A stretch of DNA of 14,066 nucleotides from the UHGV virus genome UHGV-0237147; one strand, given 5' to 3'. The notes beneath the pieces were generated by a model. The model was not told the DNA's origin. It was given only the letters and a program-made list of their open reading frames with translations, and did no database searches. Every line of letters starts with the position of its first letter. The stretch's first letter is position 1. This DNA is from a virus. Below, piece after piece: positions 3,741 to 12,653 of this stretch. A program made the position numbers and the translations under genes.

Positions 3741-4122
3741 TGCTGGCCCCTCCTCCACGGAATCGCGAAAGAATACTGAACAGGCTTCCCAAATCCTGAC
3801 TGTTGAAAAATGTGAGCACTTTGATTGTCATCGCAGCCACTACAACAGCACCAAGTGCGTCTAATGGTCTATCACTGTACCCGGTAGCTTGTGACAGCTT
3901 TGAACCAACCAGGCCAGCAGCAAGAACGCCAACAATGAATGACGTCATGAAGTAAGCAATCAATCGTACTCGTGTGATATTTGCCGCTGTCGCTACATAA
4001 AATACTGCACCAGCGAATGCGCCAAATACCACGCCATAATCAATACCGGTTGCAAGACCAAATACGCTGGCTCCCATCAGGCCACCAGCCGCGACCGTAG
4101 TGCCAGAAACAGGATCGGACAT
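3727..4122 (-). CDS. Holin (multi-TM small membrane protein, 131 aa)
   Basis: ATG 4122 with RBS AGAGGGGG; Gly/Ala-rich TM helices throughout; first gene of the lysis cassette immediately upstream of the endolysin. Confidence 0.7.
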   Translation of the reverse strand: MSDPVSGTTVAAGGLMGASVFGLATGIDYGVVFGAFAGAVFYVATAANITRVRLIAYFMTSFIVGVLAAGLVGSKLSQATGYSDRPLDALGAVVVAAMTIKVLTFFNSQDLGSLFSILSRFRGGGASNGNK

Positions 4123-5989: not shown

Positions 5990-7039
5990 TTATGCCAGCA
6001 CGCCAATTGCCAGCGCTCGATCTATAACCCGAAAAACTAGGACCAGTTGGTCATCGTATTTCGCTTCAAATGCCACGGGATCAGCATGCAACTCGTTGTG
6101 ATGTGCTCTGCACAGCGGTATCACAAACAGGTCGTGTGCTTTTGTACCCATTCCACCCTGCCCGTGGCCAATCAGGTGGTGGGGGTCGTCTGCGGGTTTA
6201 TTGCAACAAACACAGGGTTGTGTTTTAACCCAGCGGGTGTACGTCTCATTTATCCAGCGGCGACGTTTTGGCCTGAGCATGAAAGACTCCGGAGACTCCG
6301 GATCGACGGTTAACGTCAGTATTGGCTTTTGGGTTTCCACATCCAGGCTGTCTGACCGCCGAGCTGGTAACGTTTCAATCGGCCTGACTTTTTCCTGCAT
6401 AATGCTGGTGGCCGGCGGCATAGGTACGATGTCACTTTCCCGGTAAACAGATAATAATGGTTCGTCTGGCAGCCGTAGTGCCCGCTGCGCCATTCCTTCG
6501 GTGACAGCATCAGCGACACCAGATTGAACCGCCCACCAGCAAAGTTCGGCTAAAGAGAGGGAGCGCTCTTTGTTGTAGCCAAGCCCAGCCAGTACGGTAT
6601 CAATAATCCATTCGGCAACATTGTTCAGCGCAAGCGCCTGCAATCTTTCCGTTGTCTGCCCGCGCAATTTGTTATCGCAGTGCCAGCACACCACCAACGC
6701 GCCAGGCGGATGCCATAGTGTCGTTAGCTCGGCATGATGGTAATCAGAAAAAGGGTACTGACACTTTTTAATGCGCTGACGAAGCCAGAACTCAAGCCCG
6801 GACATACCACCAGCAGCAGTAATGACCCGTTCATCGGTAAAGAAAGTGTGAAGGCTGGGATCCTCCAGTAGCGGTTGCTGTGCATCGGGGATCCGACCAG
6901 ACGGAAGCCGGGCCATGTTTTCTGGCTCCCGTTCAACCAGCACGCGACCTGATGCAAACAGGGGCATTAACTCCCGTCCTGGCTTGAACAGCACCACGCC
7001 AAGGCGTGGCACCATTTCAGGGGTAAGTAAGGCTCTCAA
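5990..7039 (-). CDS. DUF968-like prophage protein with a C-terminal HNH-type Cys/His motif (349 aa, TTG start; alternative ATG at 7015); resembles E. coli Qin prophage YdfU
   Basis: C-terminal CVCCNKPADDPHHLIGHGQGGMGTKAHDLFVIPLCRAHHNELH is an HNH-like metal-binding motif; size and position next to the Q-like gene match the YdfU family as I recall it; RBS AAGGGG upstream of TTG 7039. Confidence 0.6.
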   Translation of the reverse strand: MRALLTPEMVPRLGVVLFKPGRELMPLFASGRVLVEREPENMARLPSGRIPDAQQPLLEDPSLHTFFTDERVITAAGGMSGLEFWLRQRIKKCQYPFSDYHHAELTTLWHPPGALVVCWHCDNKLRGQTTERLQALALNNVAEWIIDTVLAGLGYNKERSLSLAELCWWAVQSGVADAVTEGMAQRALRLPDEPLLSVYRESDIVPMPPATSIMQEKVRPIETLPARRSDSLDVETQKPILTLTVDPESPESFMLRPKRRRWINETYTRWVKTQPCVCCNKPADDPHHLIGHGQGGMGTKAHDLFVIPLCRAHHNELHADPVAFEAKYDDQLVLVFRVIDRALAIGVLA

Positions 7040-8843: not shown

Positions 8844-9242
8844 TCAACCCACAGCTGGACATATAACCACCTCTTTTTTATATGCCGTTATGGTTATCTC
8901 AACTTTTCCCTTCGGTACTATCGGTCCCCATTCCACCAGCATGCGCTTAATCTGGCTGTCGTCTTCCCAGACACCCGCATGCGTCAGCGCGTCAAACAGG
9001 GCTTTGTTGTAATTATCGATATCCCGGCGGCGCGCATCCGGCGGGTACAGAGTGATTTCTACCGCTGCCAGTTCAGTCGATGGCTTCGGGAGACGTCGTA
9101 ATTGCTCAATGATCGCCACGCAGGCAGCGCTCTGGTATTTACGGCCATCAGCGCTAATGAGGTGACGACCGGCCAGCGGCCCCTTGTTAGGGGAGCGCCA
9201 GTAAGTGTTCACGCTCGGAGGAAAAGGCAGGATCAATTTCAC
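8844..9242 (-). CDS. rusA: Holliday-junction resolvase RusA (crossover junction endodeoxyribonuclease), 132 aa, GTG start
   Basis: N-terminus MKLILPFPPSVNTYW and the acidic motif RRRDIDNYNKALFDALTHAGVWEDDSQI match the RusA family; GTGA overlap with the methyltransferase stop; RBS GGGGAGAGG. Confidence 0.85.
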   Translation of the reverse strand: MKLILPFPPSVNTYWRSPNKGPLAGRHLISADGRKYQSAACVAIIEQLRRLPKPSTELAAVEITLYPPDARRRDIDNYNKALFDALTHAGVWEDDSQIKRMLVEWGPIVPKGKVEITITAYKKEVVICPAVG

Positions 9243-10558
9243 GCGGCCTCTCCCCGCATATTGCGAACAAGTTCAGAAGCGGCAGTAATGATTTCGCTGG
9301 TGGCCGTTCGTTCCAGCCAGAGTTGATTGATGTTGGCTTTCAGCTTGTTCTGCTGTGAATCATCCAGCATGTCAGCGCCATCCACCTGATCGAATACAAT
9401 TCCAACCTCCAGCGGCCAGATACGGGACTCGGGAAGCGGATCCGCTACTGGTTTAGCTTTCTCACGGATGTGCATGCGGATCTGGCGAATATTGGACCAA
9501 CTGGAAACATCCAGGCTTCCCATAGCTGCAATGAAATCAGTACTGTTCATGCCATATTCACCAGATGCTTCAAGGGCAACAGTCCGAATACGTTCCGACA
9601 TATCCAGGTGCGCAGCAGCGTCATCGAATTCAATCGACAACAGCCACTCATCCACACCGAACAAAATACTCTCACGAATAAGCAGCTTCGCTTTGTCGAT
9701 CGTTAATGGTGATACCTGAGTGAATTCCGGTGCTTCGACAGAATCCGCCGCCCAGGTATGCCCAAACTTCGATTCACTGAATGTGTATTCTTCTTTATCG
9801 CCGAACGCAGCTCTAACGCATGCCCACGCCTCTACACCGCTGACATCAAAAATATCTTTCTGGGTGAGTGGCAACTCTACTTCTGGCTTGTCAGCTACAG
9901 ATGGTGTGGCAGTTGCAGGTTGAGACTTGCTGACAGCAAATTGCGCCAAAGTCATAAACGCCTGCCCTTTTGCCTCCAGTTCTGTACGGTTGATATAGCT
10001 GAACCGCTCACCACGCCATGACTTATCGAATACAGCTATGGCACCGGCAAAAAACGCGCTGGTGGGCTTCTGTTTTTCGTCAGCAGGTACAAACCACACA
10101 GGCAGATCGAACCCAATGCGCCCGCGAATGAATACAATGTGATCGGCATCTTCCGGCCACCACGTTTCACTCGGCGCGGCTTTTATCAGGAATACATAGC
10201 GACCGCCCTTTTCGCGCTGGGCTGCTGCGTACTTCATGATGTGCGTCATACCAGTGATCGCCTGATTCTCGTGGTACTGCGAACGGCTATACGGTGGGTT
10301 GCCATAACCTGCACCACCTAGTTCTGCCAGACGTTCAGACCAATCCTGGGTCAGCGCGTTATCTTCGGCGGTGTACCATGCCGGGCATTTCGCGTTGTCG
10401 TCGTCAGCAAACAAGTCCAGAACTAATGGGCCAAATAACGCGTTGATCCCCCAGAAAAGCAGATCAGGTGTCCTCCACTGATCTCCAACTTCTTTCAATT
10501 CGTGAGCTGGTTTACTGCGCAGTTCAGCCAGCGCCTGGCAATACTTATTTGGCATCAT
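9239..10558 (-). CDS. Phage Dam-family DNA N6-adenine methyltransferase fused to an acidic C-terminal domain of about 240 aa of unknown function (439 aa total)
   Basis: N-terminal roughly 190 aa carry WRTPDLLFWGINALFGPLVLDLFADDDN and the NPPY catalytic motif (GNPPYSRS) typical of phage Dam methyltransferases; the remainder (after a Pro/Ala/Thr linker QPATATPSVADKPEVELPL) is acidic and unrecognised. ATGA overlap with the upstream replication-gene stop. Confidence 0.75.
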   Translation of the reverse strand: MMPNKYCQALAELRSKPAHELKEVGDQWRTPDLLFWGINALFGPLVLDLFADDDNAKCPAWYTAEDNALTQDWSERLAELGGAGYGNPPYSRSQYHENQAITGMTHIMKYAAAQREKGGRYVFLIKAAPSETWWPEDADHIVFIRGRIGFDLPVWFVPADEKQKPTSAFFAGAIAVFDKSWRGERFSYINRTELEAKGQAFMTLAQFAVSKSQPATATPSVADKPEVELPLTQKDIFDVSGVEAWACVRAAFGDKEEYTFSESKFGHTWAADSVEAPEFTQVSPLTIDKAKLLIRESILFGVDEWLLSIEFDDAAAHLDMSERIRTVALEASGEYGMNSTDFIAAMGSLDVSSWSNIRQIRMHIREKAKPVADPLPESRIWPLEVGIVFDQVDGADMLDDSQQNKLKANINQLWLERTATSEIITAASELVRNMRGEAA

Positions 10559-11421
10559 GAGCGGAACCCCGAATTTTCTGGCAGTGAATAGTCAACATTT
10601 TGGAAGTTTGCGCGGCTGGCTGAGTTAGTCGCCCATTTACCGTTAACGCGTTCAGGTCGCCCAGCGGCAGACCATTTGGTCGCGCTTTGCAGGTAACCGG
10701 GGAAGTTTTTTGGAATAAACAGAGTTGCCGGGCGGAGGTATTGAGCCTGCTCGCTATCACGCCAATCAGCGTTTTTGTAATCCACCACAAGGCACAGATC
10801 ATCAACAGTGAACTGTTCCCGCAGACGGGCGCGAATGTTCTCCAGCGACGTGCTGCATACCTGGTAGCGTGAACCAGTTGTCTGGTTCAGGTAAGACAAA
10901 ACCTGTCTGGCCTGATCAGTAATCACAACCTCAGGGTCGGGTTGCGCCGCAACCGGACAAGAGGGTTTTGAAGTTACTTGTGGATCTTGTTTTGATTTTA
11001 CTGACGGATCCCCGCCAGATTCTGACGGGTCAAAACCTCCGTTTTTGCCAGATTTCGACGGGTCAGTTTTTGAGGCGTCAAATTTTGATGCGTCAGATTT
11101 TGACGTGTCAGAATCTGACAGTTGAGAAAATGCGGCAGCCTGAAGTTTCGCCACATTCAGTCGGTACACGTTCGACGCATTACGGTTACCATTACGGCGC
11201 TGTGTACGCGTGAGCCAGCCATCTTTTTCAAGCTTTGCGATTGCCGTTCTGATAGTGCTCGGCCCAGCGCCAAGCTGGCGAGCAATAGTTTCAATAGACG
11301 GCCAGCACACGCCCTCATCGCTGCTGAAATCAGCAAGGCGAGCCATGATCGCGACACTAGACAACTTCATGCCCGACGCCGCGCAACCATCCCATACGTA
11401 GCCGGTTAATTTAGTGCTCAT
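10555..11421 (-). CDS. Replication initiation protein (lambda O-like: N-terminal HTH DNA-binding domain, low-complexity Ser/Lys/Asp linker, conserved phage C-terminal replication domain), 288 aa
   Basis: N-terminal winged-helix-like region (ETIARQLGAGPSTIRTAIAKLEKDGWL); C-terminal region (QARQVLSYLNQTTGSRYQ ... DYKNADWRDSEQAQYLRPATLF) resembles the conserved phage replication C-terminal domain (TIGR02220-like, from memory); iterons lie inside the gene as for lambda ori. Confidence 0.7.
   Translation of the reverse strand: MSTKLTGYVWDGCAASGMKLSSVAIMARLADFSSDEGVCWPSIETIARQLGAGPSTIRTAIAKLEKDGWLTRTQRRNGNRNASNVYRLNVAKLQAAAFSQLSDSDTSKSDASKFDASKTDPSKSGKNGGFDPSESGGDPSVKSKQDPQVTSKPSCPVAAQPDPEVVITDQARQVLSYLNQTTGSRYQVCSTSLENIRARLREQFTVDDLCLVVDYKNADWRDSEQAQYLRPATLFIPKNFPGYLQSATKWSAAGRPERVNGKWATNSASRANFQNVDYSLPENSGFRS
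11002..11111. repeat. Iteron array (candidate origin of replication): imperfect repeats with palindromic cores TGAyGnGTCA at 11023-11032, 11056-11065, 11071-11080, 11087-11096, 11101-11110, and a partial copy at 11002-11011
   Basis: Read directly from the sequence: tgacgggtca, cgacgggtca, tgaggcgtca, tgatgcgtca, tgacgtgtca, each flanked by a short T/A run; located inside the replication gene where they encode the SK[ST]D low-complexity linker. Confidence 0.7.
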
Positions 11422-11677
11422 GATCGTCCGTTATCTCCCTGAACTTTTGCCTGAATTGCTCAAGTGGGCTGAAGCATTCGTGCAGGTAGCCATCACGCAG
11501 ATAGATAACGCGCTGTGTTTCTGGCTCCCAGCGGATAACACGGACTGGCACTCCACGGTGGTCTTTGAACCTTCGGTTAAGTTCGCGCACAGGCGTTTTG
11601 CCCTCCGGTTGTAGACCCCCACAATTGAAACCGCCCTACTGTGGTTACACGGAACCCAGCGGTTTGATAATCTGCGT

Positions 11678-11836
11678 TCATACCGAAACAACGGAGTACC
11701 CGAAACCGGGATCATCCTGAGTTGCGGTAGACGGTTAAAAGCCGTTAAACTGCTCATGCGGATTATTTCTCCATACTCGAAGAGTTGTTCGCCAAGTCGC
11801 CCGGAGCTGCACACTCGCGGGCGTCACTCTTTTCTG
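11678..11836 (+). ncRNA. Candidate OOP-like antisense RNA (plus-strand transcript antisense to the 3' end of the CII-like gene)
   Basis: Sigma-70-like promoter GTTACA (11644-11649) - 16 bp - GATAAT (11666-11671) on the plus strand; intrinsic terminator at 11797-11836 inside the 3' end of the minus-strand CII-like gene; no convincing plus-strand ORF with an RBS in between. Inference by analogy to lambda OOP. Confidence 0.3.
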
Positions 11837-12314
11837 CGACACAAAAAACTCGATAAAGAAGCGCTACGTGCTCCTGGAACTTCGCGATAACCTGATAGCT
11901 GTTTTCCTCAATCTGAGCGCGCTCATCTGCGTCAATTACCCCATCAGCCGTGGCTTTACGTACAAAATTAGAATGACGGCCTATCCATTCGATGGACTCC
12001 ATCAGGCGCTGGTTGATATCGGCGTTATCCAGATCATCAACATCTGCCAGCGGTACAAATACGCCCTGAGAATGGCGCGCAACGGCATCAGCTATATGAG
12101 TTGAACCACCAGCACGTTGTAAAACCATTGCCCAGCCCAGTGGGAAGATCTGGTCGCCGTCAACACGAAGGCGGTTAAACAATGCGTTCTCTGTCACACC
12201 CAACCATTCCGCCGCCTCAGCATATCCACCAGGCAGATCGGTAATCGTTTTTTTAATCGCTACCACCAGCCAGGAAGGCTGACGCTCGACTTTCCAAATA
12301 GGTTCGTTACCCAC
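11763..12314 (-). CDS. CII-like early regulator (YdaT-family HTH protein), 183 aa, GTG start
   Basis: Occupies the cII position directly downstream of the Cro-like gene (8-nt overlap); HTH-like segment GGYAEAAEWLGVTENALFNRL; RBS GGGAGGAG upstream of GTG 12314; family assignment from memory of YdaS/YdaT pairs. Confidence 0.5.
   Translation of the reverse strand: MGNEPIWKVERQPSWLVVAIKKTITDLPGGYAEAAEWLGVTENALFNRLRVDGDQIFPLGWAMVLQRAGGSTHIADAVARHSQGVFVPLADVDDLDNADINQRLMESIEWIGRHSNFVRKATADGVIDADERAQIEENSYQVIAKFQEHVALLYRVFCVAEKSDARECAAPGDLANNSSSMEK
11797..11836 (+). terminator. Plus-strand rho-independent terminator embedded in the 3' end of the minus-strand CII-like gene
   Basis: GC-rich stem CGCCCG (11798-11803) / CGGGCG (11818-11823), extendable with one bulge, followed by TCACTCTTTTCTG; no T-run on the opposite strand. 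Confidence 0.45.
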
Positions 12315-12552
12315 GGCTCCTCCCTTCTTCCTGTGGTTTGAGTTTTACTGAAGCTTCGCTACGCTTTTCGTAAAGGTCGGGATGGAAAACCAATTTCCCC
12401 CCAGTCCGATAGGCTGCTTCTGCTGCACGTCCTTTCGGGATTAGGCGACCAGTTCTATTACGCCACTGGTAAACGGCCTCGCTTGTGATTCCAAAAAATT
12501 CGGCAACTTTCTCAGTACTGCCGAAGTAGTTTTCAATATCATCGGTTGTCAT
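12307..12552 (-). CDS. Cro-like repressor (YdaS family HTH protein), 81 aa
   Basis: Divergent from the CI-like gene; RBS AGGAGG 4-5 nt upstream of ATG 12552; motif VAEFFGITSEAVYQWRNR ... FHPDLY matches the YdaS-type Cro-like family as I recall it. Confidence 0.7.
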   Translation of the reverse strand: MTTDDIENYFGSTEKVAEFFGITSEAVYQWRNRTGRLIPKGRAAEAAYRTGGKLVFHPDLYEKRSEASVKLKPQEEGRSRG

Positions 12553-12653
12553 AACGCCTCCTTAGCTAAGTTTGATTAGATATTAATAACCAATCTAACT
12601 TTGGTCAATAAAAACTAAGATTGCTTAGCCTTTTAATTTTTTATGGTGTTCAA
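12553..12653. promoter_or_regulatory. Divergent promoter/operator region between the Cro-like and CI-like genes
   Basis: Perfect palindrome CTTAGCTAAG (12561-12570); inverted repeat CTAAG-attg-CTTAG (12615-12628); inverted repeat TTAGAT (12575-12580) ... ATCTAA (12593-12598); AT-rich 101-bp spacer between divergent start codons. Confidence 0.6.

Follow-up and report, generated by a model that had tools for sequence, protein, structure and literature searches.

A lambdoid replication module with an in-gene origin and no recognizable helicase loader, in which the initiator's own C-terminus is the probable link to host helicase loading

Phage lambda is the textbook example of an initiator handing over to a phage-encoded helicase loader. 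The replication module of phage LLS contains no loader and, likewise, about one-tenth of the sequenced enterobacterial lambdoid phages (34/314) have neither loader nor helicase, as described by Zheng, Casjens, Davidson, Amundsen, and Smith (2025, Genome Res, PMC12315714). According to these authors, no member of this O-only type has been studied experimentally, and how such phages replicate is 'not yet understood'; a term search of their text for DnaT returned no mention. Here, we analyzed the replication initiator gene in 14,066 nucleotides of the virus genome UHGV-0237147 (this whole stretch is hereafter called the window), which, when read on the minus strand, represent the early-right region of a lambdoid prophage. 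We consider it probable, at roughly 60%, that this locus is an O-only lambdoid origin together with its initiator, and that the C-terminal part of the initiator couples the open origin to host helicase loading. While the single-gene O-only module has already been described for LLS, the new lead is a correlation between the initiator's tail and the loader gene, which comes and goes with 10 to 15 residues at the C-terminus. The commonest tail of initiators without a loader (hereafter, solo initiators) is that of host DnaT, which provides a handle on the O-only mechanism and, if the lead is true, bears on the function of the DnaT tail as well as on the origin of DnaT.

LLS is the second-best DNA match to the window, and its gp44 is orthologous to the window's initiator, with which it shares the N-terminal domain, the TGACnnGTCA-type sites, and the Phg_2220_C domain. 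The flanks are also the same, comprising a cII-like gene, a small open reading frame (ORF), O, and a methyltransferase gene, with no P, helicase, or other replication gene. The two proteins differ at their tails, in that gp44 has the canonical ending ...KIPEGFRG, whereas the window's protein ends in ...LPENSGFRS. Running from cI, cro, the cII-like gene, and the small ORF through the initiator, the methyltransferase, and RusA to Q and the holin, and containing no loader, the window has the composition of an O-only module. It is a typical and very common example, with counterparts in prophages of Citrobacter, Escherichia coli Nissle, and Shigella SfII/SfIV. Products identical or near-identical to its 288-amino-acid (aa) initiator are very common in the Citrobacter freundii complex and also occur in E. 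coli and Salmonella, and at least 1000 contigs carry a form with 89% identity, which is named in E. coli Nissle 1917.

Lambda resembles the window in that (i) its initiator gene harbors the origin (ori), in the part for the linker that joins a DNA-binding N-terminal domain to a C-terminal domain for recruitment; (ii) its O gene follows cro and cII in the operon; and (iii) palindromic iterons, at the equivalent place in O, are followed by an AT-rich stretch. However, lambda has four 18-bp iterons that are 20-24 bp apart, whereas the window has seven sites with a 10-bp core and a 15-bp period. Lambda O has a PF04492 N-terminal domain and a P partner encoded downstream, whereas the window's protein has a PF13730 N-terminal domain, no P, and no direct sequence similarity to O; and lambda O ends in ...NTDWIYGVDL, which is not a DnaT-like tail. 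The gene and its domains, the constraint on the repeats as DNA, the layout of the origin, the lack of genes for a loader or helicase, and the association of this lack with the tail type were all computed here; building on them, we propose the following scheme. Transcription from the Cro-side early promoter would yield the 288-aa initiator, whose winged-helix N-terminal domain, presumably as dimers, would bind the seven palindromes in the DNA of its own linker, and the resulting nucleoprotein complex, by analogy with lambda ori, would destabilize the adjacent 38-bp AT-rich stretch. Whereas lambda O then hands over to P, the Phg_2220_C domain and the short disordered tail would here do the job of P, and the coupling could involve the restart primosome (PriA-PriB-DnaT), co-assembly with the host's DnaT, or a direct contact with DnaB-DnaC.

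The initiator has a two-domain architecture, in which a winged-helix HTH_36 domain and a Phg_2220_C domain are separated by a disordered linker. Pfam assigned HTH_36 (PF13730) to aa 23-70 (E = 8e-12; 45.2 bits versus a curated cut-off of 25) and Phg_2220_C (PF09524) to the C-terminal half (E = 1e-25; 89.7 bits versus a curated cut-off of 27), and the NCBIfam model TIGR02220 scored 74.2 bits versus a curated cut-off of 66.65. An AlphaFold (AF2) model built from 32 homologs comprised a winged helix at aa 4-98 with a predicted local distance difference test score (pLDDT) of 65-80, a linker predicted to be disordered at aa 101-154 (pLDDT ~30), a helical C-terminal domain at aa 163-252 (pLDDT 80-89), and a disordered tail at aa 266-288; the C-terminal domain modeled alone reached a pLDDT of 42. 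Fold searches with the full-length model returned matches to the N-terminal winged helix only, and neither phmmer nor a 24-sequence family profile found a solved-structure relative of the C-terminal domain among the PDB sequences. The same two-domain architecture is common among the phage proteins named 'replication initiator' or 'replisome organizer' in a BFVD search. In PHROG, the N-terminal half carries the labels 'replication initiation O-like' or 'primosomal protein', and the protein as a whole is labeled 'replication initiation protein'; the O-like labeling stems from phrog_391 (E = 3e-50). The initial annotation had called the protein an 'O-like' initiator, which is borne out by its architecture, its origin layout, and the PHROG label but does not extend to direct family membership: its N-terminal domain is HTH_36, Pfam returned no match to PF04492 (Phage_rep_O), which lambda O itself matches at 6e-36, and BLASTP detected no similarity to lambda O (best E = 0.94). 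Pfam matches to GntR and MarR could suggest a transcription factor; we took them as generic winged-helix similarity given the C-terminal domain, the position in the operon, and the array of repeats inside the gene. Moreover, Pfam found no DnaB_2 (DDBH2) domain in the initiator, and the Phg_2220_C profile led to no solved DnaD-type structure. DnaD-like replisome organizers of Gram-positive phages, such as G38P of SPP1, are usually encoded beside their own loader or helicase, and the enterobacterial host is not known to have a DnaD or DnaB(Bsu) pathway.

The initial annotation had also reported a methyltransferase as the next gene and no recognizable helicase loader or helicase downstream of the initiator. 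Consistent with this, a Dam-family methyltransferase follows, and when seven reference proteins (lambda P, a second P-type loader, the DnaC and the helicase of phiP27, two primase-helicases, and E. coli DnaC) were searched against the window's six-frame ORFs, no helicase or loader was revealed. The same search was negative for the six-frame ORFs of two 12.9-kb loci of prophages with an identical initiator and of the complete 44.9-kb Citrobacter phage phiNP, whose initiator is 72% identical to that of the window and whose annotated replication genes consist of 'replication protein O' only. SfIV, SfII, mEp390, YeP3, KpF5, and F1055 presented the same solo picture as phiNP.

To place this absence in a wider context, we collected 80 loci, one genome per species, with an N-domain alignment; 72 of them encode intact initiators, whose tails were classified and whose downstream 5 kb were searched for loader and helicase homologs. 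DnaT-like tails were found at 41 loci without a loader and at one with a loader (a weak, distant match). A ~70-aa C-terminal extension ending W..IW..C.QR... (hereafter, WxxIW) was found at 22 loci, none of them with a loader. Any other tail was found at three loci without a loader, two of which end in degenerate GFR motifs, and at four loci with one, namely P in L127 and L169, DnaC in L152, and both DnaC and DnaB in L171. No loader or helicase was detected downstream at 62 of the 63 solo loci, and an ORF of at least 150 aa with a Walker-A motif was present within 5 kb at only one of the 63.

Across these prophages, the loader gene tracks the tail of the initiator, not its C-terminal domain. 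Phg_2220_C combined with a DnaT-like tail occurs at 39 loci, one of which has a weak, distant lambda-P match, and combined with the WxxIW extension at 14 loci, all of which are solo; combined with other tails, it occurs at two loci, where it is accompanied by P (L127) or DnaC (L152). The lambda-O-type C-terminal domain behaves similarly, being solo with a DnaT-like tail at three loci (L114, L125, and L144), as well as in SfIV, and solo with WxxIW at seven loci, whereas with a lambda-like tail it is accompanied by P (L169). Indeed, the C-terminal domain of SfIV gp41 (L002, 4499-5440) is homologous to the P-binding C-terminal domain of lambda O (L089, 687-1586; BLASTP E = 1e-25), and gp41 ends in a DnaT-like tail. 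Because SfIV carries this domain but encodes no P, the lambda-O-type domain is not simply 'P-binding'. Further, a DnaT-like tail is missing from five annotated phages that encode P, DnaC/DnaB, or a primase-helicase (lambda, RAH1, Xuzhou21-Stx2a, SI5, and phiP27).

The WxxIW extension, which ends ...W(N)xIW(K)xCxQR..G.KAA and to which no known domain matched, is attached to both Phg_2220_C and lambda-O-type domains. Its solo initiators are those of L102, L118, L119, L124, L139, L141, L143, L145-L151, L153, L156-L160, L166, and L167, along with YeP3 (L004:3576-4517) and P0122. Separately, tails resembling the C-terminus of SSB (...SYDDDTPL, ...AYDDNTVF, and ...GGTDDDFI) occur among P0223, P0225, P0242, P0252, and locus L152, in the last of which ...DDDFI comes after IPEGF and a gene for DnaC lies downstream; these tails hint at yet another host-contact solution.

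The DnaT-like ...D..IPxGFRG tail is carried by LLS gp44 (...VDTKIPEGFRG), SfIV gp41 (...NVDYSQIPAGFRG), F1055 (...VDTTIPEGFRG), P0226 (...RDVNQISKPDRVIPPGFRG), and 41 further prophages. Relatives show matches to the final 20-30 residues of DnaT, the primosomal protein i of E. coli, in the PDB entries 2ru8, 6aep, and 9zbt, as well as by phmmer, and to positions 157-179 of NCBIfam NF002770. Residues ~160-179 of DnaT and the orthologs of the window's protein have the same extreme C-terminal motif. A DnaT-tail profile detects the tails of SfIV, mEp390, F1055, and L099. The window's protein, whose final residues are ...FQNVDYSLPENSGFRS, has what we take to be a variant of this motif family, with one extra residue and a final Ser; the motif is seen at the extreme C-terminus of many of its relatives, whatever their C-terminal domain. 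The G-F-R core of the tail persists although all four codons for Gly and all six for Arg are used, which indicates selection on the tail peptide, and this protein-level selection extends across three C-domain contexts. In P0150 and P0209, the same HTH_36 N-domain family is fused to a true DnaT three-helix bundle (PF17948, E about 1e-13) and followed by a tail, ...DWEFDQRPDDERL, that is shared by P0142, which has a lambda-O-type C-terminal domain; C-terminal domains and tails appear to have been shuffled independently.

Like DnaT, the window's initiator is proposed to work at a step before DnaB-DnaC loading. However, DnaT contains its own N-terminal domain and the PF17948 bundle, whereas the initiator has neither (Pfam returned no PF17948 match). 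DopC of the Cellvibrionales and Oceanospirillales (PMC5509034) is an O-derived protein that combines an HTH_36 N-terminal domain with the DnaT C-terminal motif; it is chromosomal, domesticated, and paired with a P-like DopE, and has no iterons, whereas the window's protein is phage-borne, with iterons and without P. For DnaT itself, removal of residues 154-179 lowered the affinity and cooperativity of single-stranded DNA (ssDNA) binding, which is the only effect shown (Liu et al. 2014, PMC4132743). Further, in a 2026 cryo-EM preprimosome, the C-terminal domain of DnaT docks hydrophobically on PriA and forms a filament on lagging-strand ssDNA (PMC13377028). We raise, tentatively, the possibility that O-only phages can do without a loader because the initiator tail mimics the C-terminal tail of DnaT and so plugs the origin into PriA-PriB-DnaT or host DnaT, with host DnaC then loading DnaB at a sequence-specific phage origin. 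Because both the bundle and the tail occur, variously combined, on the same N-domain family, a corollary would be that the C-terminal half of DnaT, with its bundle and tail, has a common ancestry with the C-terminal modules of phage initiators; if true, dnaT-dnaC would be the operon that corresponds, on the chromosome, to the initiator-loader pair of a phage.

Several points weigh against these readings. The association between tail class and loader (Fisher's exact p = 8e-4) ignores kinship and has a comparison class of seven loci, and the tail is physically linked to the neighboring genes. The 22 WxxIW solo initiators indicate that a DnaT-like tail is not the sole route to the solo state. The DnaT-tail profile did not detect the window's own tail (DYSLPENSGFRS), the equivalence of which to the DnaT-like tail we infer from its position, its NVDYS context, and its GFR core. 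A homology between Phg_2220_C and the DnaT three-helix bundle was considered and dropped at an hhalign probability of 0.4%. The partner of DnaT's own tail is not established in the literature, and in the available text of PMC13377028 the residues of the interface between the DnaT C-terminal domain and PriA are unnamed, and the recruitment of DnaB-DnaC is still unexplained. Moreover, a loader that is not homologous to the seven references and escapes the Walker-A screen would also escape detection here, and DNA binding, unwinding, and the host partner are all deduced from sequence and analogy.

A rather unlikely alternative is that the folded Phg_2220_C domain recruits DnaB-DnaC directly, while the tail serves, for example, turnover or oligomerization. 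Direct contacts of this kind are known, in that some plasmid Rep proteins, as well as DnaA, contact DnaB. PHROG families labeled 'DnaD-like helicase loader' match the initiator weakly (E about 1e-6), the WxxIW initiators are solo without a DnaT-like tail, and HHpred described lambda O itself as an HTH_36 domain with a Phg_2220_C-like C-terminus that binds P (Brezellec et al. 2017, PMC5509034). However, the same domain coexists with P or DnaC in L127 and L152, where the tail differs, so Phg_2220_C alone is no predictor of the solo state, and selection on the tail peptide in three C-domain contexts is likewise at odds with this alternative.

It is improbable that a loader has gone unrecognized, whether in the small ORF upstream of the initiator (11431-11757, phrog_1170), in the methyltransferase, which has an unexplained insertion of ~170 aa, or in a left-arm gene outside the window, which covers just 14 kb of the prophage. 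A phrog_1170 homolog is present within 1.5 kb upstream at 38 of the 42 loci with DnaT-like tails and at 13 of the 22 WxxIW loci, but it is also present at three of the seven loci of the other-tail class, which includes the four loader-containing loci. Furthermore, in phiNP, the methyltransferase is short, no phrog_1170 ORF is annotated, and the whole genome yielded neither loader nor helicase, and the genes downstream of the solo initiators differ between loci. The phrog_1170 ORF, in which Pfam found no match, could be an accessory factor. The initial annotation had left open whether the C-terminal domain recruits host DnaB/DnaC or the loader lies elsewhere. This choice can now be narrowed, with the initiator's own C-terminus favored and a loader elsewhere disfavored, because the whole genome of phiNP and the module of LLS have no loader, and because the loader tracks the tail across 72 prophages.

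We also give little credence to a mainly recombination-dependent mode of replication, in which RecBCD at Chi, RecA D-loops, and PriA restart would leave a minor or regulatory part to the initiator. The window contains 11 Chi sites against 0.6 expected, and RecBCD enhances the growth of LLS, which has no Rec module (PMC12315714). However, the system of iterons, AT-rich stretch, and N-terminal domain is conserved and co-varying, which points to a working origin, and it also occurs in phages with P or DnaC. Further, Zheng et al. propose that recombination promoted by Chi and RecBCD helps to supply concatemers for packaging, which is compatible with initiation at an origin.

As to the origin itself, the initial annotation had described five to six TGAyGnGTCA iterons at 11002-11111, inside the initiator gene and within a stretch encoding a low-complexity linker. 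This description proved correct and slightly conservative, since seven sites occupy codons 99-141 and extend to 11125, and the linker is predicted to be disordered. The sites are spaced 15, 15, 15, 15, 33, and 21 bp from center to center (from the 11116-11125 site to the 11002-11011 site), Tandem Repeats Finder reports a period of 15 nucleotides (nt) with 4.3 copies at 11049-11112, and TGAYGNGTCA, with up to one mismatch, occurs at only five positions in the remaining ~14 kb of the window. All seven sites begin at the third codon position and encode SD[TAP]SK-type peptide repeats. When the linker peptide was held fixed and its synonymous codons were redrawn according to codon usage in the window, the sequences obtained averaged 0.37 sites versus the five observed, and none of the 20,000 draws reached five. 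Among 59 distinct homologous genes, the repeat residues vary (S, F, T, or Y before the Asp; A, T, P, or S after it), whereas the half-site bases are fixed, among them the T at the third position and the codons GAC and TCA. Moreover, 71 prophages from different species have a mean of 4.2 sites in the 261-nt linker versus 0.32 in the other ~600 nt of the gene. Homologs contain three to five tandem units, and this variation in 15-nt steps explains their lengths of 283, 288, or 293 aa.

The repeats also co-vary with the N-terminal domain. L17 of phiP27, with 60% N-domain identity, has TGAACCTTCA/TGACCCGTCA sites with the same 15-15-33-32 spacing. RAH1 O contains four TGCCATC...GATGGCA repeats that are 22-24 bp apart, Xuzhou21 O three GGCAGGAGCTGCC repeats, F1055 a 23-bp array, and mEp390 its own repeats, all inside the gene; in these four, the N-terminal domains differ and the arrays are unrelated. 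Based on the codon resampling, the fixed bases, the breadth of occurrence, and this co-variation, the repeats are constrained as DNA, beyond the peptide that they encode. That they represent a slippage-expanded peptide linker without protein-binding sites, with the origin elsewhere, is very improbable: the region does encode a disordered Ser/Asp/Lys-rich linker, and its unit number varies as slippage would give, but this view conflicts with the resampling and with the fixed third-position bases amid varying residues, the two distal sites keep the motif though they are not tandem copies, and the motif is retained at 50-70% protein identity.

The order of iterons, AT-rich stretch, and GC-rich palindrome matches that in lambda ori and is common to 66 homologs, in which the GC content dips to 0.25-0.35 at the AT-rich position and rises to 0.59-0.65 at the position of the inverted repeat. 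A role for the GC-rich palindrome may be suggested by analogy with the palindrome that flanks the AT-rich region of lambda ori. A DnaA-dependent origin was dropped, since DnaA boxes are not above chance (10 matches versus 12.3 expected, with none in 10500-11900). Two GATC sites, at 10983 and 11007, lie inside the putative origin. The coordinates of all features are given in Table 1.

Table 1. Features of the replication module and its flanks, in window coordinates.
Feature	Position	Strand	Remarks
Replication initiator gene	10555-11421	minus	ORF, 288 aa plus stop; ortholog of phage LLS gene 44, 'O family protein'
N-terminal winged-helix domain	11128-11412	minus	aa 4-98; presumed to bind the iterons
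Phg_2220_C/TIGR02220 helical C-terminal domain	10687-10902	minus	aa 174-245; Pfam and NCBIfam
Disordered C-terminal tail, QNVDYSLPENSGFRS	10558-10602	minus	Putative diverged variant of the orthologs' DnaT-like ...[DN]xDYSxIPxGFRG
Iteron array, seven TGACnnGTCA-type palindromes	11002-11125		Encodes disordered linker, aa 99-141
Iteron sites matching TGAYGNGTCA with up to one mismatch	11023-32, 11056-65, 11071-80, 11086-95, 11101-10		
Iteron sites, degenerate end copies	11002-11011 (TGACGGATCC), 11116-11125 (TGACAGTTGA)		Same codon register as the other five
AT-rich stretch, candidate DNA-unwinding element	10963-11000		38 bp; adjoins the last iteron; GC 0.32 versus ~0.52 for the gene
GC-rich inverted repeat	10923-10971		Core at 10940-10954 is perfect (GGTTGCG-C-CGCAACC); lies distal to the AT-rich stretch
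cI-type repressor	12621-13280	plus	HTH_3 and Peptidase_S24
P22-Cro-type gene	12307-12552	minus	
cII/CP76-like gene	11763-12314	minus	
Small Cys-rich ORF, phrog_1170	about 11431-11757	minus	PHROG E = 1e-16; directly upstream of the initiator
Dam-family N6-adenine methyltransferase	9239-10558	minus	PF05869, E = 9e-44; TIGR01712; next gene downstream

The methyltransferase gene, which occupies the position of P in lambda, is translationally coupled to the initiator gene via an ATGA overlap. Its product is 439 aa long, and the phiNP enzyme (293 aa), like most of PHROG 111, lacks the insertion (about aa 205-378). Beyond it lie RusA, KilA-N, AntA, a 173-aa ORF, DUF968/HNH, the antiterminator Q, and the holin. 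Methyltransferase genes of several kinds, as defined by BLAST clusters, are found within 3.5 kb downstream of the initiator at 39 of the 63 solo loci, where the downstream clusters comprise methyltransferase, DUF968/HNH, RusA, Rha/AntA, small winged-helix, and Q genes in combinations that vary by locus.

Records titled Vagococcus sp., Chryseobacterium sp., and Martelella alba (L105, L110, and L135) contain this enterobacterial prophage initiator with 80-91% N-domain identity, for which contaminating contigs in those assemblies are the likeliest source. In E. coli ECDA1023 (L161, from 6001), a 455-aa ORF comprises the first ~79 residues of the N-terminal domain followed by unrelated sequence and is probably a rearranged or fused remnant, perhaps comparable to the e14 ymfN pseudogene fusion.

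The Chi sites (GCTGGTGG) of the window number 11 versus 0.61 expected, a count that none of 200 shuffles reached. They lie at 6404, 7948, 9296, 10058, and 13613 on the plus strand and at 4082, 6533, 6807, 8933, 12106, and 12263 on the minus strand. The window is thus similarly Chi-rich to the LLS-type class of lambdoid phages without a Rec module, but, with five sites on the plus and six on the minus strand, it does not share a bias toward one strand. Its Chi richness and the RecBCD-enhanced growth of LLS are in keeping with a phage that relies on recombination and restart functions of its host, although they do not prove it.

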